Shown here piece by piece: positions 2,590 to 23,510 of a DNA stretch of 24,296 bases. Below the pieces are notes generated by a model. The model saw nothing but the letters and a program-made list of their open reading frames with translations. It did no database searches and had not been told where the DNA came from. Each line of letters opens with the position of its first letter. Within the stretch, counting starts at the first letter, position 1. The DNA is from a virus, in IMG/VR virus record IMGVR_UViG_3300037245_003526, positions 1 through 24,296 of that record. One strand, written 5' to 3'. Position numbers and translations under genes: made by a program.

Positions 2590-5139
2590 ATGACTGACAA
2601 TACAGTATCTTCAGAAATATACCAAAGTCGAGATGCTACTAGAGATAAAATTATTGAACTTCTTCAGCGATACTTGGAGTTAGGTAATGTAGACTTGACA
2701 AAAACATCATTCCTATCATATGTTACGGATGTTATGTCTATACTTTCCTCAAATCTTATGTTTTACCAAGGTAATGTTTATAGAGAATTCTTTATGACAA
2801 AAGCTCAATTACCAGAGTCTATTTATAACTTAAGTTCTTTTATAGGTTATACTCCATCAGAAGCAAGTTATTCCTCTACAAATCTTCTTATAACAGTACC
2901 TCTACCTTTCAATGATACAAATATAACTTTTTCAATAGCAGATGGAAGAGATGGTAATTTTAAATTTCAAACATCCGATGGTATTAAATTTCTAACATAT
3001 TATACAACAACCGTAACTGTAATAAATAATAGTGATGTTACTATACAAATTGATCAAGATGGTAAACTTTATACCTTACCTGTTTATATTGATACAACTT
3101 CTGCTGATCAACAGTTTCAATTTGTACTACCTGTAAGACAATATAAAAGTACAAGATCTGAATTTATTATTGATCCTGATCTTCAACCAAATCAGTTTAC
3201 CAATATTGATGTTCCTATAGATGGTAAAGTTGCTGAAATGTCGGTGTATGTTAGGAACCCTGGAAGTGATGTAGACACCCTTGGTATGTTGTACGATGGC
3301 TCTTTTGATAGTCTATATTTAATGACTTCCTCTGATTATGGATATGTATCAAGAAACATATCTGAAGGTAAAAGATTATATTTTGGTAATGGAGTTATAG
3401 GACAACAACCTCTTCCTGGTTCTACAGTAATTGTATTCACTGACATAACAGAAGGGGAATCAGGTAACGTTATAGCTGGTTCTGTAACAACAGGTAGTAG
3501 AATATATACAATGGCTGGTGGTGCTTCAACAATAGTAAATTACACAGTAACAAATACTTCTCCTGCTACAGGTGGTAGTGATGAAGAGTCACTACAGGAA
3601 ATAAAACAAAATTCTATAGATAGTTTAACATCTCTAAATAGATTAGTTTCTGAAGGTGATTATGGTCATGTAAAAACTATAATTGAGGATGCTCCTATAG
3701 CTGAAAATTCTATAGCAGTATTAAAAAGATCTGATCTTAAAGTTAATGAAATTCAGTTATTCACTATTCTTAATTTCAATAATGAAATAGTTCCAACCAG
3801 AAATATATATTATTCAGTTCCCACTGGTACTACAGTAATTCCAAGAGATACTGTAATTACATTTGATGGAGTTGAATACATTACTATATTTGATATAGAA
3901 ATATCATCACTAAATACATATGCTGACTATGAATATAATCTACTACAACTACAAATTACACCTCTTTTAATACAAAGTTGGAGTAGTGCAAATCAAGATG
4001 CTTATAACTTTAACTCAAATGAATTATTAGTATCATATAATGATGCATCTGCAACTGTAACTTTTGAATTTTCATATTTTTCAGATGAAATAGATCGTAC
4101 TAATTGTTCTTGTGATTTAACAATTCTTTCTACAGATGATACTCGTGCTATGACAAATACTGCAAATGCAAATGGAGGAGTTTTTTCATACACATTTCCA
4201 AATTATACTGATATCCCGAAGGGAAGTCAGACGTATTATCTTACTGTAAGTAATTCAAACTTACCGATTCAACAATTAATATCACGATATTCTGCTTCCT
4301 TTATATTAAGACAGGATTTATCACCATTATATATGATGTCAAATACAGCGAATGATGGTACTACAACCATCATATATGATATACCAGGAATTAAAAAATC
4401 CTACTATGATAGTATTGATAAAATAGATTTTGAATCTGCTGTTATACAAGAATTTTTATCATCTATGGATTTAAAAGATTATAGAATGATGACTGATTTC
4501 ACTAATCTTAAATTCTGTAGTACTACTGGTAAGATGAATAATATGCTTTTAAATAAGAATAATAAGTTAGCAGTAAAAGACATGGGTTTAACTAGTATTC
4601 CTACATCTTTAACTACTGGGGACAGATATATTATAAGTGGTAATGAAGGAGGTACATGGACTGGTCATAGAGATGATATAGCAATTTGTACAGATTCTAC
4701 TGCTTCAACATGGACTTTTATAATGCCAAATGCTAATGATATTACATACGTTCAAAGTAAGAGTTCAAATTATATCTATACACAATATGGATGGAAAATA
4801 CCTCAATATGATATTCCTTTACAAATATCTATAGAACTATTTAGAATTCTTGATTCATCAATTACCGACGTTTCTTTAGTATATAATATACAAGCTGCTT
4901 TAGTTTCAGCATTTTCTAGTAGATTTGGTCCAAATTTAACTATTTATAGAACAGAAATAATAGAAGTTATTCAAGGAGTGACTGGGGTTTCCCATTGTAG
5001 ATTAATAGAACCAGAAAGTAGTGTTTTCTTTAATTTTGATCTTTTAGATTTTACAGAACAACAATTACTTGAATATGGTCCTGAATGGGTATATTTTGAA
5101 ATTGATGATATTACAATAAAAGTTCTTCCTGCGGAGTAG
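2590..5139 (+). CDS. baseplate J / T4 gp6-like baseplate wedge protein
   Basis: 849 aa. The internal motif SPATGGSDEESLQEIKQNS resembles the conserved GG.D.Es.e.lR segment of baseplate-J family proteins. Size and position after the gp25-like gene fit. Confidence 0.7.
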   Translation: MTDNTVSSEIYQSRDATRDKIIELLQRYLELGNVDLTKTSFLSYVTDVMSILSSNLMFYQGNVYREFFMTKAQLPESIYNLSSFIGYTPSEASYSSTNLLITVPLPFNDTNITFSIADGRDGNFKFQTSDGIKFLTYYTTTVTVINNSDVTIQIDQDGKLYTLPVYIDTTSADQQFQFVLPVRQYKSTRSEFIIDPDLQPNQFTNIDVPIDGKVAEMSVYVRNPGSDVDTLGMLYDGSFDSLYLMTSSDYGYVSRNISEGKRLYFGNGVIGQQPLPGSTVIVFTDITEGESGNVIAGSVTTGSRIYTMAGGASTIVNYTVTNTSPATGGSDEESLQEIKQNSIDSLTSLNRLVSEGDYGHVKTIIEDAPIAENSIAVLKRSDLKVNEIQLFTILNFNNEIVPTRNIYYSVPTGTTVIPRDTVITFDGVEYITIFDIEISSLNTYADYEYNLLQLQITPLLIQSWSSANQDAYNFNSNELLVSYNDASATVTFEFSYFSDEIDRTNCSCDLTILSTDDTRAMTNTANANGGVFSYTFPNYTDIPKGSQTYYLTVSNSNLPIQQLISRYSASFILRQDLSPLYMMSNTANDGTTTIIYDIPGIKKSYYDSIDKIDFESAVIQEFLSSMDLKDYRMMTDFTNLKFCSTTGKMNNMLLNKNNKLAVKDMGLTSIPTSLTTGDRYIISGNEGGTWTGHRDDIAICTDSTASTWTFIMPNANDITYVQSKSSNYIYTQYGWKIPQYDIPLQISIELFRILDSSITDVSLVYNIQAALVSAFSSRFGPNLTIYRTEIIEVIQGVTGVSHCRLIEPESSVFFNFDLLDFTEQQLLEYGPEWVYFEIDDITIKVLPAE

Positions 5140-5147
5140 TATAACCT

Positions 5148-6257
5148 ATGGAAATATTACTAGCTAAATCAAATATAGATTTTATCAGACTTAGAAAAAA
5201 AATTCATACAATAGTAGGAACTGAATTACCAGGTTTAACAGAACCATGTTATTATCCTTCCTTAAAAAAATACTATTATGAACTTCTTCATCTATGTAAA
5301 TTAAAAGAATCTGATATCAAAGATTATGTTAAAAGATTTTATATGGGAACACCAGCTGCTAAATGGAAACTTCAAAGAGATCCTATTACTAATTTATATA
5401 TTTTTTTAATGCATGTATTTCTTACAAAAAGACAAGTTAATACATACCGCTCTATAATGCTTCTACATCTAATAAGACAATATACAAATCTTATGAATAA
5501 ACAAATTCAGTTTTGTAATAAAGATGCATTTAAATATACTTTAGAAAATATAGCAAAAACTCATTTATTTGTAAGAGAGGGAACAATTCCAAATGCGTTA
5601 GTTTTCTTATCAAGAGAAATGGAAAAAGCTTATACCAAAGATATAATAAATAAAGATGTAAATAGAGTAATTCTATTTATAACTGTATGTAGAACAAGAG
5701 TATCACAAAGTATTAAAAGTTTTGCAGAATTATACTATCATGCTAGTAAGGAAGGTTTAGGAATAAGACAACCAAAAGAAGATGAAGAAGAAAGAGGTGA
5801 AGTACAACATCAACAATTAGAAAGATCTTCAAGAGTTATAAATAGTGTAGTTAGAAAGATAACTGTTTATAGAGTTGTTGATAAAAAAGCAGTTGAAATG
5901 GCCAAGAATCTTACTAAAATTAGATCAAGTCTAGCAACCATGATTTCAAGTAATATAACTGATGTAAAATATGCAGATGATTTAAGAACAATCCTAGAAT
6001 TATTTGTTAAAGATTTACAAAACGTATCCTACTTATGTGGAGATGAATTCTTCACTTATGTTAAGAGTCTTATGGCTATTAAAAGAACTAAATCAATAAT
6101 CTACTTTAAAAAACAAATTAATGATTTGTTATTATCACTTCTAAAAACATTAAAATATGAAAAAGAATATAATAAACTTACTAAACAAACCCAATCCTTA
6201 ATTAACCTATATTTAGCATTCTACTTAACAATAGTTTTTAGAAATACAATTTGTTAA
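5148..6257 (+). CDS. hypothetical protein, basic and predicted helical
   Basis: 369-aa ORF, last gene of the + strand block. Converges on the - strand block with a 22-nt gap. No motif recognised. Confidence 0.65.
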   Translation: MEILLAKSNIDFIRLRKKIHTIVGTELPGLTEPCYYPSLKKYYYELLHLCKLKESDIKDYVKRFYMGTPAAKWKLQRDPITNLYIFLMHVFLTKRQVNTYRSIMLLHLIRQYTNLMNKQIQFCNKDAFKYTLENIAKTHLFVREGTIPNALVFLSREMEKAYTKDIINKDVNRVILFITVCRTRVSQSIKSFAELYYHASKEGLGIRQPKEDEEERGEVQHQQLERSSRVINSVVRKITVYRVVDKKAVEMAKNLTKIRSSLATMISSNITDVKYADDLRTILELFVKDLQNVSYLCGDEFFTYVKSLMAIKRTKSIIYFKKQINDLLLSLLKTLKYEKEYNKLTKQTQSLINLYLAFYLTIVFRNTIC

Positions 6258-13247: not shown

Positions 13248-13312
13248 ATAGGCGCTCCTTTTATATTTTGTTCTAGTAAAATTCCAATCAGTTTAAAAAA
13301 ATCTTACTATAT

Positions 13313-13341
13313 ATATAACTAAGTGAAAGATATGTTTGCAA
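13313..13341 (-). promoter_or_regulatory. candidate sigma70-type promoter for the terminase operon
   Basis: The minus strand reads TTGCAA (13341->13336), a 17-nt spacer, then TTATAT (13318->13313), about 65 nt upstream of the terL ATG. Hexamer match only, in an AT-rich background. Confidence 0.25.
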
Positions 13342-13586
13342 GTTTGTTTATATCTTTTGTAGTTTTATATTAATCCTAAAAAGGGGTCGACACATGATTA
13401 TTCTTTTGAAGGAAATTGGCTATTGTGCAGGGATGATTTCATCAGTTTTTGTTAATGCTAAGAAGCAGGAGACTTCTCATTATGACTACAATTGGACTAT
13501 GTTGTGACAAAAATGATTTACAACCTAAGGGAGGTGTTATTTTCGTTTTAGAAGAAAATAAGATTAAAAAAACTTTAACCACGGAT

Positions 13587-13669
13587 TCACTGGATTGCAA
13601 TAGGTTAAGTAAAAACATCTTATTTTTAGCGGGATCAAGCTTATTATTTAACCTATTGCAATCCAGTGA
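13587..13669. repeat. perfect 22-bp inverted repeat (TCACTGGATTGCAATAGGTTAA / TTAACCTATTGCAATCCAGTGA) with a 39-nt spacer
   Basis: Arms at 13587-13608 and 13648-13669 are exact reverse complements. They lie in the 490-bp non-coding gap upstream of terL. Confidence 0.85.
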
Positions 13670-13739
13670 GTTTAGCTTAAATTTAATTATAAACAGAAAT
13701 GAGATATTCCCAATTCTGGGATATTTTATTGTACAAATT

Positions 13740-14972
13740 TTATACTGTTCTATTTGTTTTAACAAGCTCTAAAGCAGCAGTTGCTTCCCATCCTGCCTCA
13801 GTTCTATGTAATTTAATGTCAGTAGAAAGTAATATATATTTTTTTCCAATTGGTTTATGCTCTAAGGTTTTTATACCTAATAATATTGAAGCACCTACAT
13901 TTAATAATGGTTCAATTAAAATATTTTTTTCTATGTTAATTCTAGATCTTGTCATATCATAAATACTTTTAGCCATCATTGATTTAGCAAATACTTCTGA
14001 TTCACCAAATCCTCCATGAGCAATATAATAACGAATTCTTTCTAAATCTTTATGAATAGGAATTTCACTTCCATCACTGCATCCATTTTCTTGAGAAATA
14101 GTTTCTAAATCAAGTTCAATTGTTTCACTTAATTTATCGTCAGGAAGAACTATATGTTTTAAAGTTTTTCCATAATAACTAAATTTAGCATTACCTGTAT
14201 AAGAAGTGTGAATATTATCATATGTTAAAACTTTACTTTTATCTTCTTCTTTAAGTACTGGATTATCACTAGTAGTCATATGCTCTATAATCATTGATGG
14301 TTGTTTTAATATTTCTTCTGCTAAATTTCTTATAAAAATAGTATTATCATATCTACAAAATATTCCAGAGACACCCTCAAAAATACCAAATGTACTATCT
14401 ATATAATTGATAGCATCGTAAAGTGTTGTTGGTGGAATACATACTTGTTTTATAATATCTATACTATCTCCAGTTCCCCATTCAGTTTCCTCTACATTAG
14501 GAGCATATGTACTTATCATGTCGTCTATAATTTGTTTAGGAGTCATGGGACTCATATGAACTCCATAAACTTTATTTACCATAGTAGTCATCGTAATAAA
14601 TGGTATTCTAGTAACAGTTTGAATTCTCATAATAGTTCGATCTTCTTGACTTCCTGTTGCCATCTCAGTAGTCACGGGTACTTCAAATTCTGAAGAAATC
14701 ATAAGAAGATCAAGTTCAGTATTTTCTTTAATAGTTTCATCTTGACCCAATAAATCCAACTTCAAAGTAATTGTATCTTGACCATATAATTTATCTTTGA
14801 TTATTACGTGAGGTGGAATAAAAATTTCTAGAGTGACAGCGGTCCATGCTGATACTAATGAAGTCTCTATTCGAATTTCTTCAAGAAATTTAGAGTATAA
14901 TGTATCTTGATTATTATTAATAGAAAGAGTTATATCATAACTCCTAGTTGGTTGAAGTAATTTATCTACCAA
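13740..14972 (-). CDS. hypothetical protein (possible tail/baseplate hub-type structural protein; weak)
   Basis: 410-aa ORF with a TTG start 8 nt after AGGAGG. It overlaps the upstream 68-aa ORF by 11 nt. No diagnostic motif; the structural role is guessed from context only. Confidence 0.6.
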   Translation of the reverse strand: MVDKLLQPTRSYDITLSINNNQDTLYSKFLEEIRIETSLVSAWTAVTLEIFIPPHVIIKDKLYGQDTITLKLDLLGQDETIKENTELDLLMISSEFEVPVTTEMATGSQEDRTIMRIQTVTRIPFITMTTMVNKVYGVHMSPMTPKQIIDDMISTYAPNVEETEWGTGDSIDIIKQVCIPPTTLYDAINYIDSTFGIFEGVSGIFCRYDNTIFIRNLAEEILKQPSMIIEHMTTSDNPVLKEEDKSKVLTYDNIHTSYTGNAKFSYYGKTLKHIVLPDDKLSETIELDLETISQENGCSDGSEIPIHKDLERIRYYIAHGGFGESEVFAKSMMAKSIYDMTRSRINIEKNILIEPLLNVGASILLGIKTLEHKPIGKKYILLSTDIKLHRTEAGWEATAALELVKTNRTV

Positions 14973-17377: not shown

Positions 17378-18820
17378 TTAGAAATATGAGTTCATTATAT
17401 TTTTCATTTCCTCTATCTTTGGATTAAGTTTTCCAGCAAATAAAAGTGTATAAAATCTAATCATATCACCTTCTATCTTTGATAGAGGAATCCCTGTCAA
17501 TCTTTTTCCTGAATAAATATTACAGAAATTAACTCTGGATGTTCTTCCTACGAAAAAACTCATTATATCGTATGGTAATATTTTTGTAGTAAATCCAAAA
17601 AAGTTTTCAACACTTTGTTGAATATTTATAAAACCAAGTTCATTATTAACATTTTTAATTTTATATGTTGTAGCATTTGCTGGTTGACTTACTGGATAAA
17701 ATTCAAGTAAACTGAATAAATCACTGTATTCATTCTTAAATACTTTTTTCAAAATTGAGTGTATATAAACAGATAAAATAGCAGAATACTCTGGTGAAAC
17801 TGTTGAAAAATAACTGTATGGAATATCTGTCATTTCTGATAAAAGTGGAAATATTAAACAATCACTTAGAGGTGAGATATATTCAATAGAAGTGATACGA
17901 TTATGAAAATCATTAACTCTTTTATCATTTGCATCATCTTCTATAATAAAACGACTTTCTGATTCAATAGCTTCATGAATTTGTTCATATGCTATAACCT
18001 TTAATTTACCTAATGTATCATTAAAGGAATATGTTTTTAAATTATCTCTATCTGAACTATGAATATCTTCTGTAGAAATCTCATCATCATAAATCATAAC
18101 TCTTTTATAAACAGATCGTAAGAACCATTTAACTGATTCATCTACTACACCAACAAAATATGTAATTGGATTTTTCTGTTCTTCACATAATACCACAATT
18201 GAATTCATTATGAAGTTGAATATTTCATCAGCATGAGTATCTATAGTTTTACAATGCATATTCTTTAAATACTCCCACATATATGCATCAGTAAGATTAT
18301 ATCTATATGTTTTAGTCTTAACAACATTCAAAATTTTACTTACAATTTGTTTTTCGATAATTTCATCAATAATTATATTATAAAGTTTTTTATTAATCTT
18401 TTTAGGAAGTTTTAAATCACTATTAAATAAAACTGAAAATATTTTAAGATAATTTGAAGTTCTTATAATGCTTTTAATCTCATTTGGCTCAAATAGAATA
18501 GTTCCTTTTTTAACTTTCTTTCTATTTACAAAAGTCTCATAATCAATTTGTAAATTATCAATGTATTCATCAACGAATTCCTTAAGTTTATTAATATTAT
18601 CAACCATATCTTTAAGTTCTAATGATCCTAAATTAAGAAATATATCTATAAACCATTCATCAAATGATTCTCCAATTTGAATGGATAGTCTTTCTATGAA
18701 ATCAGTAATTATGAAAAATTTGTTTGTTATTGTGGATGAATCTAAATTAAGAGTTTTAACCATCTCATCATCCTTGAAAATGTTCCATTTTTTAGTTTGC
18801 TGCTTTTCGAATTTTAGCAT
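17378..18820 (-). CDS. hypothetical protein (480 aa, acidic)
   Basis: Long uninterrupted ORF with an AAAGGAAGGA SD. No motif recognised. Confidence 0.7.
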   Translation of the reverse strand: MLKFEKQQTKKWNIFKDDEMVKTLNLDSSTITNKFFIITDFIERLSIQIGESFDEWFIDIFLNLGSLELKDMVDNINKLKEFVDEYIDNLQIDYETFVNRKKVKKGTILFEPNEIKSIIRTSNYLKIFSVLFNSDLKLPKKINKKLYNIIIDEIIEKQIVSKILNVVKTKTYRYNLTDAYMWEYLKNMHCKTIDTHADEIFNFIMNSIVVLCEEQKNPITYFVGVVDESVKWFLRSVYKRVMIYDDEISTEDIHSSDRDNLKTYSFNDTLGKLKVIAYEQIHEAIESESRFIIEDDANDKRVNDFHNRITSIEYISPLSDCLIFPLLSEMTDIPYSYFSTVSPEYSAILSVYIHSILKKVFKNEYSDLFSLLEFYPVSQPANATTYKIKNVNNELGFINIQQSVENFFGFTTKILPYDIMSFFVGRTSRVNFCNIYSGKRLTGIPLSKIEGDMIRFYTLLFAGKLNPKIEEMKNIMNSYF

Positions 18821-18910
18821 AGAATTCCTTCCTTTTTGTGGAAATTTCGTATTCCATTATAAACCAAGTTGTTATATATATTCATTTATGAGTAAAACTC
18901 TTCGAGAAGA

Positions 18911-22279: not shown

Positions 22280-22352
22280 TCATAACAATGGGAATCGAAC
22301 CCATGTTCTCATGTTTATCAGACATGTGCTTAACCAATTAAGCTATGTTATA
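22280..22352 (-). tRNA. tRNA-Ile (anticodon GAT)
   Basis: Cloverleaf drawn by eye. Acceptor TATAACA/TGTTATG (U1:G72 wobble), D-arm GCTT-AATTGGTT-AAGC, anticodon arm CATGT-CTGATAA-ACATG, variable AGAAC, T-arm ATGGG-TTCGATT-CCCAT, discriminator A. CCA is not encoded. Confidence 0.9.
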
Positions 22353-22353
22353 T

Positions 22354-22461
22354 TGGTGCAGTTACGTTAATAACCGCAGGGTTACATCAAAAATGCTTTT
22401 CATTGAGTACCAATCTAAATATGACAAATATCCCTTTGCTCTACCGCTGAGCTACACGCCA
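22354..22461 (-). ncRNA. tRNA-like RNA: canonical tRNA 5' acceptor strand and D-arm, then non-tRNA sequence ending in a 7-bp hairpin plus ACCA
   Basis: The minus strand from 22461 reads TGGCGTG TA GCTC AGCGGTA GAGC A AAGGG... No T-arm and no matching acceptor 3' strand follow. The RNA ends GCGGTTA-TTAACG-TAACTGC-ACCA (22377->22354), 1 nt before the tRNA-Ile 5' end. Confidence 0.5.
22402..22413. repeat. direct repeat copy 1 (ATTGAGTACCAA)
   Basis: 11/12 identical to 22554-22565. On the minus strand it contains a D-loop-like TTGGTAC box that starts exactly 60 nt before the encoded CCA end at 22354. Confidence 0.7.
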
Positions 22462-22471
22462 GTAATTAAAA

Positions 22472-22499
22472 AATTATATAAACTTTAATTTATATAATT
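22472..22499 (-). other. A/T-only perfect 11-bp hairpin in the linker between tRNA 3' and 5' fragments
   Basis: AATTATATAAA-(6 nt)-TTTATATAATT. On the minus strand it is followed by TTTTAATTAC and then the acceptor 5' strand. Confidence 0.7.
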
Positions 22500-22505
22500 A
22501 TGTAA

Positions 22506-22533
22506 TGGCTGGCGTGACGGGATTTGAACCCGT
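22506..22533 (-). ncRNA. tRNA 3' fragment: T-arm, acceptor 3' strand, discriminator G and encoded CCA
   Basis: The minus strand reads ACGGG-TTCAAAT-CCCGT CACGCCA G CCA. No complementary acceptor 5' strand or D-arm lies upstream of it. Its complement, TGGCGTG, lies 44 nt downstream instead. Confidence 0.6.
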
Positions 22534-22553
22534 GCATAGAGAAAAATTATATG

Positions 22554-22565
22554 ATTAAGTACCAA
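22554..22565. repeat. direct repeat copy 2 (ATTAAGTACCAA)
   Basis: 11/12 identical to 22402-22413, offset 152 bp. The minus-strand TTGGTAC box starts exactly 60 nt before the encoded CCA end at 22506. Confidence 0.7.
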
Positions 22566-22634
22566 CTATTGGGCAACAATGCATTTATAAGCTTGTTGGT
22601 TCGTAATTTAAAATAAGGATAATCTATCTGTGGA

Positions 22635-22652
22635 TCCAACATAATTGTTGGA
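22635..22652 (-). other. 7-bp perfect hairpin (TCCAACA-TAAT-TGTTGGA) in the non-coding leader upstream of the tRNA fragments
   Basis: Exact inverted repeat. It is enclosed by a longer-range complementary pair TTGGTTC (22596-22602) / GAACCAA (22684-22690). Each of those heptamers sits next to a copy of TATAAGCTTG. Confidence 0.5.
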
Positions 22653-22721
22653 CAGAAATAATGAGGAATATAAGTATAAGCTTGAACCAATTTCAATAAT
22701 ATGTTCTCATCAATTAAGTAA

Positions 22722-23510
22722 TTATCCCTTAATTGCGCCATGTATGTAACTAAATATTTCTTTACCAACCTGACGAGATTCAACTTCAGTTCCATTTGCT
22801 CTTTGCCTTGACCTCTTTATTGCTCGAGCAAGTTTATCAATCCTGGCAAGAATTGCTGATTTCTGAGATGGGGAAACCATACCGCACCATCTGTGTGTTG
22901 AATATTCACCAATTGCACTATTCTCAACCCACTCTTTTATCTGGGCAGGATGATGATCAGTGGCATCGTACATAACCTTACTTTGCTGAGTTTTTTCAGT
23001 TTTCTGATCCTTAACCATATTATCATCCTGAAATACTCCTTCACCAATATCAGGAGCTTCTACCCATTTTATTCCAGGAGGAAGTGTAGGAATCTTGCTA
23101 TAAACATCCCTGAGTGTACTCAACTCATACTCCATTTCAAGAAGAAATGTAACTGGAACATTTTCTGCTATTGTAATTCCATCCACAGCTATGTCCGATT
23201 TAGCAAGACAGTTTCCACTTTCCTTTTGAAGCTTGGCATCCCAGAATTTTATGAAGCTCTCGGACATATAGTCAAGTTTATCCTGAACTGTTGTGGTGAT
23301 TTCCTGATGTTCTTCAGTATTCTCTTTTTGTCTGGCATCATCAAACATCCTTAAACTACGATGCTGACCATGAAAATGAGAGACTCTCTTTAAAAATGTT
23401 TGCTCAGTCTCAGTTTTGATTTTTTCTTTTGCTCCTTTGAGACTTCCTACCACTGCCAAAATTTCGTGTAAAACTGGTTTTTTCTTAGACATTTTAAATT
23501 TTCCTTTCAT
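22722..23510 (-). CDS. hypothetical protein (262 aa), higher GC than neighbours
   Basis: Uninterrupted ORF. The first ATG has no SD. An alternative start at 23492 (MSKKKP) lies 9 nt after AAAGGA. No motif I can name. Confidence 0.75.
   Translation of the reverse strand: MKGKFKMSKKKPVLHEILAVVGSLKGAKEKIKTETEQTFLKRVSHFHGQHRSLRMFDDARQKENTEEHQEITTTVQDKLDYMSESFIKFWDAKLQKESGNCLAKSDIAVDGITIAENVPVTFLLEMEYELSTLRDVYSKIPTLPPGIKWVEAPDIGEGVFQDDNMVKDQKTEKTQQSKVMYDATDHHPAQIKEWVENSAIGEYSTHRWCGMVSPSQKSAILARIDKLARAIKRSRQRANGTEVESRQVGKEIFSYIHGAIKG

Follow-up and report, generated by a model that had tools for sequence, protein, structure and literature searches.

A conserved long hairpin and a probable antisense mini-gene in the gap upstream of terL of a T4-like phage

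Phage genomes are known to carry pac or cos sites and a small terminase gene upstream of terL (T4 gene 16, P22 gene 3, SPP1 pacL/pacR), and it is directly upstream of terL that the 24,296-nt stretch of viral DNA studied here (positions 1 to 24,296 of IMG/VR record IMGVR_UViG_3300037245_003526, hereafter the window) has a long gap (13248-13739), which contains a perfect 22-nt inverted repeat able to form a long hairpin and, next to the upstream gene, a short G+C hairpin (13708-13721). Unlike such packaging systems, the window has neither a terS open reading frame (ORF) nor repeated binding boxes, and the long hairpin is missing in relatives with a close TerL. Other known systems share some traits with this locus. 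The short hairpin at 13708-13721 resembles Rho-independent terminators between convergent genes in that it lies where convergent units meet and is flanked by an A tract and a T tract, but the large repeat departs from them in its 39-nt loop and in a U tract that does not adjoin the stem. Lambda sib and the T7 R sites are phage hairpins for RNase III processing or retroregulation, such sites usually having internal loops, and the window hairpin shares with them a long double-stranded stem, two helical turns or more in length, which falls within the 3' region of a small gene and would form in read-through transcripts; T4-type phages are, to our knowledge, not known to rely on RNase III. Palindromes resembling miniature inverted-repeat transposable elements (MITEs) or repetitive extragenic palindromic (REP) sequences are similar to the repeat in size (~83 bp), in their perfect terminal inverted repeats and in being intergenic, yet ours is single-copy in the window, has no target-site duplication, is orthologous in two genomes and has changed by mirrored substitutions rather than decay.

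Closest among described concepts seem to be the promoter-early stem-loop (PeSL) cassettes of T4-type phages (Arbiol et al. 2010, PMC2839356; Comeau et al. 2014, PMC4122927), in which small orphan ORFs, present or absent between close relatives, are bordered by an AT-rich stretch following the stop codon of the upstream gene, by a terminating or attenuating stem-loop and by a promoter. PeSLs comprise repeated motifs of ~100 bp and near-consensus sigma-70 promoters, followed on the same strand by a Shine-Dalgarno (SD) sequence and a start codon; a few lie inside virion modules, and they have been proposed to keep early ORFan expression out of late virion genes (PMC2839356, PMC4122927). The slot that we describe is likewise variable among relatives (32 to at least 920 nt) and filled with orphans, and its stem-loop overlaps a sigma-70-like -35 element. 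It differs from PeSLs in that the 24 kb of the window show no repeated motif, the promoter match does not exceed chance and the cassette runs antisense, with no ORF following TTGGGA-16-TATAAT on its strand; nor do PeSLs have anything comparable to the long hairpin (22-30 bp, loop of 31-39 nt). By analogy, PeSLs would be the nearest described relatives, of which the window cassette is at most a possible member.

What we find at this locus is ordinary phage genome plasticity plus one conserved structured element, rather than a site for packaging or the remains of a small terminase. From the anatomy of the repeat, from the strand asymmetry of the gap and its antisense terminator, and from a hairpin that has been conserved through mirrored changes, we infer, tentatively and with somewhat less than even confidence, that the long hairpin acts as RNA, that it forms, protects or processes transcript ends and that it insulates terL and the cassette from each other. 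The gap would then be a small plus-strand transcription unit, opposite in direction to its neighbours and inserted between two late virion genes. Along the plus strand this unit would run from one or two mini-ORFs (starting at 13394 and 13482) through the long hairpin (13583-13673) to the terminator at 13708-13721 and its T tail, with terL being served by its own conserved promoter/leader block (13326-13248), so that the 22-bp repeat may be seen as an RNA stem-loop at the place where two convergent units meet. There it may act in three ways, which are not mutually exclusive: it may form or protect the 3' end of the plus-strand mRNA; it may be a double-stranded substrate for processing, e.g. 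by RNase III; or stem, basal helix and a U7 tract on the minus-strand RNA may together damp late read-through into the cassette and the terL leader. As for this last option, the minus-strand stem with its U7 would work as a terminator of non-canonical type, or as a pause site, before the terL promoter block is reached. If so, strand composition, terminator orientation and a few relatives can reveal, in an uncultivated jumbo phage and without expression data, an antisense mini-cassette hidden in a slot whose cargo is quite different in relatives.

An initial annotation of the window, made from its letters and a list of its ORFs, had reported a gap of about 490 bp upstream of terL and in it a perfect 22-nt inverted repeat with a 39-nt spacer, and both descriptions are accurate. 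The gap measures 492 nt, and its arms, TCACTGGATTGCAATAGGTTAA at 13587-13608 and TTAACCTATTGCAATCCAGTGA at 13648-13669, are exact inverted repeats of each other on either side of an A/T-rich spacer (13609-13647). Since the edges of the spacer partly pair, the arms lengthen to 29 nt at 93% complementarity, and as plus-strand RNA the full hairpin (13583-13673) reaches 30 contiguous base pairs by means of G-U pairs. Predicted folding energies are -43.9 kcal/mol for the plus strand (z = -9.2) and -41.0 kcal/mol for the minus strand (z = -8.7), and the in-silico stem, with its 22-30 bp, would be long enough for an RNase III substrate, for which ~20 bp or more of uninterrupted double-stranded RNA are required. 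In the fold of the minus-strand RNA, a U7 tract follows 14 nt after the stem and is reached through a weak basal helix.

The arm sequence is single-copy in the window, where 0 of 100 shuffles gave a match. Rfam 15 has no match to the region at gathering score and, in E-value mode, returned nothing but microRNA-precursor and other models, whose 12-23 bits fall well short of the respective gathering scores. Searches with the exact arm gave 0 matches in IMG/VR and in JGI metagenomes, a degenerate two-arm pattern gave 0 in IMG/VR, and ~157 kb of related sequence held no other perfect hairpin of at least 13 bp with a loop of more than 7 nt. A genome scan with the 19-mer ACTGGATTGCAATAGGTTA from the arm produced three matches (L019 3089-3107, L020 7014-7032, L021 1191-1209), all of which fall on the C-terminal codons (NWIAIGY-stop) of tail-fibre genes of prophages, two in Melainabacteria and one in a Fusobacterium metagenome-assembled genome; both window arms read HWIAIG-stop in one frame. 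We regard this tail-fibre link as coincidence: three matches compare with ~4 expected by chance, there is no repeat at these sites, similarity does not extend beyond the 19-mer and no such gene end occurs in the window.

Conservation of the hairpin came to light through the gene upstream of the gap. Searching with its 410-amino acid product led to a protein (P0124, 83% identical) on a 2.5-kb ENA scaffold (L022, sample ERZ23498475) that ends 185 nt into the gap, and this scaffold has the same short terminator hairpin as the window and an inverted repeat that begins 71 nt after the stop codon, the exact offset of the window repeat. The L022 arms (2383-2421 and 2435-2473) span 39 nt at 90% complementarity, and their core (2383-2412 and 2444-2473), which is homologous to the window arms, has 30 bp of perfect pairing around a 31-nt loop. 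Its predicted fold is -55.4 kcal/mol on the plus and -51.1 kcal/mol on the minus strand, with z = -11 and -12, respectively, so in both the window and L022 the plus-strand RNA is 3-4 kcal/mol more stable than the minus-strand RNA, a fold bias that may give a weak hint as to the strand.

Comparing relatives for arm conservation and compensatory changes was a check that the initial annotation had proposed, and its outcome favours the repeat: L022 keeps the hairpin and every arm difference is mirrored. For this comparison the arms were aligned one by one, MAFFT having misplaced the 3' arms through the unequal loop lengths. From window to L022 the arms change from CAC to CGC, from ATTGCAAT to ATAACAAT and from AGG to AGGG, which makes three pair substitutions (A-U to G-C, U-A to A-U, G-C to A-U) and one inserted G-C pair, all of them mirrored, and no one-sided change is seen in the core between these two sequences, the only two at hand. 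The arms are much better conserved than the loop and the 5' flank, and the window, L022 and a further relative, L008, share a block behind the stem made up of GGTTAAA(G/T)TT and a T-rich run. The ORF frame that passes through the arms stops in the loop in L022 and in the first arm in L008 and is open to 13772 in the window. Because this frame differs among the three, we see constraint on pairing and not on protein. Judged by these comparisons, the hairpin appears lineage-specific yet conserved, a structured element under constraint whose pairs are kept through two-sided changes.

Such symmetry need not imply a function. Template switching that corrects quasi-palindromes is an established mutational route, first described in T4, and the repeat could be a functionless, self-maintaining palindrome which arose by inverted duplication or MITE-like insertion in an ancestor of the window and L022 and has been kept perfect by intrastrand template switching. 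In line with this, neither the 22 bp of the window nor the 30 bp of L022 contain a mismatch or a G-U pair, yet ~15% of arm positions differ between the two genomes, and the slot that houses the repeat is hypervariable and apparently dispensable, with an ORF through the repeat that looks like read-through into non-coding sequence. A palindrome of this kind would, however, have had to keep its exact 71-nt offset despite 17% divergence of the neighbouring protein, and it would have had to keep arms that are better conserved than loop and 5' flank. The flanks lack a target-site duplication, the window has no second copy, IMG/VR and JGI metagenomes have no match, and the genome matches of the arm are only unrelated coding sequences, which also argues against a mobile origin of this sort. 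To our minds, a functionless palindrome is unlikely.

The reading of the hairpin as an RNA element at the end of a plus-strand unit draws on the second, shorter hairpin of the gap. With the sequence TCCCA-ATTC-TGGGA (13708-13721) it is located directly after the stop codon of the 410-amino acid gene and reads best on the plus strand, where a terminator scan called it with the tail TATTTTATTG. The T-rich tail of this terminator, TATTTTATTGTACAAATT (13722-13739, plus strand), is on the minus strand the A-rich tract after the upstream stop codon, and this tract is kept in relatives as TAAAA..ACAAYAAAAA. Moreover, 8 of 8 loci with a long gap (the window and seven relatives, see below) have a hairpin at the upstream stop followed by antisense TTTTTRTTGTA, and the stem sequence differs in each; the stem is clear in seven of the eight and weak in L001, and loci with a short gap lack the short hairpin. 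Given its G+C stem, short loop and U tract and their conservation, 13708-13721 has the make-up of a canonical Rho-independent terminator directed antisense. The sigma-70-like TTGGGA-16-TATAAT (13686-13713, minus strand), which matches the consensus at 10 of 12 positions, overlaps this short hairpin. We rejected it as a promoter driving a hairpin small RNA: promoter-like hits occur at shuffle level, and its -10 is not kept in L022 or L008.

Strand composition likewise singles out the gap. The genes flanking it are all on the minus strand, and GC skew sorts the strands of the window, being negative for 20 of 20 minus-strand genes (-0.12 to -0.44) and positive for 6 of 6 on the plus strand. Over 13327-13700 in the gap the skew is +0.21, compared with a maximum of 0.09 for segments of the same length (374 nt) in minus-strand territory, and it rises to +0.28 over 13394-13586. 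The mirror-image open frames of 107 codons that the initial annotation had pointed out are present on both strands (13449-13772 plus, 13765-13442 minus). Under a first-order Markov null, the probability that each of the two strands is open for 107 codons or more is ~5e-5 to 3e-4, and it is because such frames are this improbable that present or former coding is suggested; shadow ORFs of similar size are common opposite real genes in the window.

The plus-strand ORF called by the source's gene caller (P0121, 96 amino acids, 13482-13772) has CAGGAG 10 nt before its ATG, and its tail crosses the hairpin and the terminator and overlaps the 410-amino acid gene by 33 nt. Its codon score is 0.37-0.43 over 13479-13570 (~30 codons), real genes of the window having 0.24-0.49, and falls to between -0.13 and -0.25 from 13569 on and to -0.54 for the last 33 codons; the coding-like part is only ~13482-13580. 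As DNA, the P0121 region aligns locally with an antisense ORF of 68 amino acids in L008 (score 37 vs 23.2 +/- 3.4 for shuffles, 2 of 500 of which reach it), the replacements being conservative (I/L, F/Y, V/M), the opposite L008 frame having a stop and the ATGACTA start context being common to both ORFs. BLASTP among the antisense ORFs of the window, L008 and a third relative, L016, was not significant (E 0.02-0.09 in two comparisons, no alignment in the third), blastn of the gap region against 50,697 phage genomes gave no match, and neither Pfam nor PHROGs matched any gap ORF. A second plus-strand ORF of 37 amino acids (13394-13507), with AAAGGGG upstream at 13380-13386 and a codon score of 0.06, is of uncertain status.

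Within P0121 lies an SD-like AAGGGAGGTG (13527-13536, plus strand) that had been noted for having no start codon at a normal spacing, and reading the sequence bears this out, there being no ATG, GTG or TTG 5-10 nt downstream. AAGGGAGGTG supplies Lys-Gly-Gly-Val codons of the plus-strand ORF and aligns with GAAGGAGGTG of L008 (Glu-Gly-Gly-Asp), both being x-Gly-Gly-x; L008 has an ATG 8 nt after GAAGGAGGTG, where the window has GTT (13545-13547). This orphan SD is best read as the coding sequence of a Gly-Gly motif and at most as a former internal start signal. We rate the plus-strand mini-gene as probably real, though not proven, because both small proteins are database orphans and the pairwise BLASTP was not significant. 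The claim that the gap holds no credible ORF is weakened by composition, antisense terminator and L008 homology.

One could go further and take P0121 at face value as a real small, perhaps membrane, protein with an incidental repeat. Its frame is improbably long, starts with an SD and an ATG in the same ATGACTA context as in L008, was accepted by a gene caller and looks coding-like for its first 30 codons. Yet the negative codon score from 13569 and the tail that overlaps the terminator and the convergent gene, the absence of homologues and a frame through the repeat that differs in L022 and L008 make plain coding improbable in our view. In a variant of this scenario, included in the same judgement, the repeat stimulates -1 recoding at an A7 run (13566-13572; T7 on the minus strand) which, in the plus-strand ORF, is read as Lys-Lys and is followed, 11-15 nt downstream, by the 30-bp hairpin. 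Were the frame to shift by -1 at A7, or one A to be added there, P0121 would end after 40 amino acids at a TAG (13601-13603) inside arm 1, and in L008, too, the first arm of the weak repeat contains the stop of the homologous ORF, a parallel that fits a coding explanation. Against the variant, U AAA AAA is not a canonical slippery heptamer, the spacer is long and the arrangement is not kept in L008; a homopolymer sequencing error, a real frameshift mutation or slippage could each account for it. As for the opposite strand, we rejected the 107-amino acid ORF as a +1 extension of the 410-amino acid gene, given that it has no slippery site, a poor codon score and a frame broken in L008.

Several of our findings weigh against an RNA role for the hairpin at the end of a plus-strand unit. 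Perfect arms without G-U pairs in the core in both genomes would also be expected from arm-to-arm template switching in the absence of selection, or from a constraint at the DNA level. Only the window and L022 carry the hairpin, L008 having at most a weak 7-bp counterpart (CCGGGCA/TGCCCGG) that 15 of 300 shuffles reach. The large repeat fails the canonical terminator pattern (3-8 nt loop, adjacent U tract) with its 39-nt loop, and U7 is 14 nt from the stem on the minus-strand RNA and no U tract is found on the plus side. Promoter scanning found no convincing plus-strand promoter in the gap. Finally, a protein search among 1.84 billion representatives found no homologue of P0121 other than itself, and a protein search with the 68-amino acid ORF of L008 likewise found only itself.

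How relatives use the slot between the upstream gene and terL bears on whether the repeat serves packaging. Of 22 loci gathered, 17 carry a close relative of the window TerL or of the neighbouring 410-amino acid gene, and slot size was taken from the stop codon of the upstream gene to the ATG of terL. Five lineages whose TerL is ~70% identical have only 32-63 nt there (L003/L010, L004, L006/L012/L017/L018, L009 and L011), and the long gaps comprise 181 nt (L001), 374 nt (L015), 375 nt (L005), 412 nt (L002), 456 nt (L007), 492 nt (the window), 724 nt (L016), 815 nt (L008, with a TerL 88% identical to that of the window) and at least 920 nt (L014, TerL 73% identical). Only two features are common to the long gaps, the terL-proximal 70-80 nt and the hairpin directly after the upstream stop codon, and both are missing in the short-gap loci; beyond the 70-80 nt adjoining terL, the long-gap relatives hold unrelated sequence. 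From these alignments, the slot would appear to be hypervariable and optional and, when filled, to have an antisense-facing terminator. Because its size ranges from 32-63 nt to between 181 and at least 920 nt, a family-wide pac site or origin in it is unlikely.

The same comparison bears on the idea that the repeat works as DNA, i.e. as a cruciform or hairpin that marks a packaging start (pac-like, in place of terS), takes part in replication or recombination, or is the target of a site-specific protein. T4-type phages carry gene 16 (terS) directly upstream of terL, and here the repeat takes this very position with no terS-like gene recognisable nearby; perfect symmetry of the arms would suit a DNA-level constraint, and the slot seems to attract structured DNA (a 36-nt repeat array in L014, three hairpin repeats in L016). 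Five lineages with ~70% identical TerL, however, have a slot of just 32-63 nt, and long-gap relatives share only the 70-80 nt next to terL. Moreover, direct repeats, iterons and an AT-rich unwinding region are all absent here, the spacer varies in length and sequence (39 vs 31 nt), and TerL is gp17-like, T4-type phages being known for headful packaging without a strict pac site. Taken together, a DNA-level role strikes us as improbable.

Among the roles that the initial annotation had put forward for the repeat, structured RNA (or, more generally, a structured nucleic-acid element) gains from the mirrored changes in L022, and the others find no support. Against a packaging initiation site speak the slot of 32-63 nt in relatives with ~70% identical TerL, a gp17-like TerL and a hairpin found only in the window and L022. 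For a replication origin, iterons or a direct-repeat family are lacking, GC content (0.29-0.31) is as in the flanks and the skew flips only locally and then returns. An operator is unlikely with 22-bp arms 39 nt apart and a poorly conserved spacer. The observation that a small terminase is missing was correct, as no terS-like ORF occurs in the slot of the window or of its relatives, and the minus-strand ORF (13765-13442) offers no candidate for terS (expected as ~100-250 amino acids on the terL strand) either: it lacks both SD and ATG, its codon score is -0.16 and it matches nothing in PHROGs or Pfam.

At its terL end the gap holds what we take, from its sequence, to be the promoter and leader of terL itself (13248-13326, minus strand), with a TATATATATA box at 13308-13317, AGAACAAAATATAAAAGGAG and the SD GGAG at 13255-13258. 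This block is 86% identical to L008 over 73 nt, and a (T/A)ATATATATA(A/G) box ~55-60 nt before the terL ATG, together with the leader AGAACAAAWAWAAAAGGAG, occurs in 8 of 9 long-gap loci. The terL-proximal box is one mismatch away from the T4 late consensus TATAAATA, which is found in exact T4-type form upstream of a gene at 1500. In the window, TATATATA occurs at two sites only (13308-13317 and 18873-18880), with ~5 occurrences expected from base composition by our own estimate, and both sites are intergenic and ~55-60 nt upstream of a virion-module gene, namely terL and a 480-amino acid gene (17378-18820), making it a candidate late-promoter motif.

A closer tie between cassette and terminase can also be conceived, with the hairpin as a lineage-specific cis element that links the antisense early cassette to terminase expression or use. 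This may take the form of a switch, retroregulatory or based on RNase III, by which the amount of terL transcript is set or, more radically, of a structured RNA or DNA that has taken over part of the recognition by terS, a gene that this phage family does not have beside terL; in either form we consider it a long shot. An anti-SD pairing of CACCUCCCUU with the terL SD was rejected, since by inspection it comprises only 4-6 bp. Should the hairpin prove to control terL or packaging, T4-like phages without an adjacent small terminase would have a means of regulation that is new; otherwise the hairpin would be a clear case of template switching that maintains a perfect palindrome.

As to the genomic setting, the window comes from a T4-like myovirus, with baseplate hub and wedge genes, an ATP-dependent DNA ligase, a tRNA-Ile and a gp17-type TerL. 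A TerL identical to that of the window (P0001) is found on a 244,552-nt JGI contig, and therefore the phage is a jumbo phage. terL (13247-11598, minus strand) matches PHROG 2 with E = 5e-39, and the upstream neighbour of the gap is the 410-amino acid gene (14972-13740, minus strand), to which no function was assigned. The gap between them is the largest in the window, the remaining ones being 27-194 nt; the initial annotation, which had put the gaps elsewhere at 0-30 nt, was too strong on this point, gaps of 40-194 nt also being present.

The slots of some relatives have contents of their own. That of L008 carries two intact antisense ORFs with good SD sequences, one for a zinc-ribbon protein of 88 amino acids and the other for the protein of 68 amino acids. 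Small antisense zinc-ribbon ORFs (CxxC...CxxC) with good SDs are found in L008 (3567-3833, minus strand, 88 amino acids) and in L016 (2699-2875, minus strand, 58 amino acids); the two align end to end, not significantly (E = 0.038), and the window slot lacks this ORF. In L014 (1-810, Logan SRR22808017 contig) a repeat array of at least 800 nt is located directly upstream of the terL promoter block. It consists of ~22 repeats of 36 nt in which the cores TGGTTAACT and TGGATTTCT alternate every 18 nt, has stops in all frames and extends to the contig end; its layout resembles that of iterons bound by a protein, as in a centromere, pac site or origin. L016 has three copies of a 45-nt repeat (2451-2672), each with a hairpin ATATCACAACA..TGTTGTGATAT that in one copy is 14 bp perfect, and an antisense ORF of 65 amino acids reads through the three hairpin repeats. 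The features noted in L016, at 2451-2672 and 4651-5706, include a NUMOD3 homing-endonuclease gene directly after terL.

Away from the gap, a permuted tRNA-like element (22415-22553, minus strand) is found beside the tRNA-Ile (22280-22352, minus strand). An ORF of 82 amino acids (22547-22795, minus strand) that overlaps the 5' side of this element has a codon score of -0.09, as against 0.24-0.49 for real genes, and is unlikely to be a gene. The proteins neighbouring the element were found to include no Ro60/TROVE member. In the permuted order, the T-arm with the acceptor 3' strand precedes the acceptor 5' strand with the D-arm, and a 49-nt AT-rich hairpin (22455-22516) is inserted where the Rfam model for YrlA (Y RNA-like tRNA mimic, RF02553) has 2 nt. 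The element matches this model over its full length with 33.4 bits (gathering score 69, E = 2e-5) and may be a phage-borne Y-RNA-like RNA.

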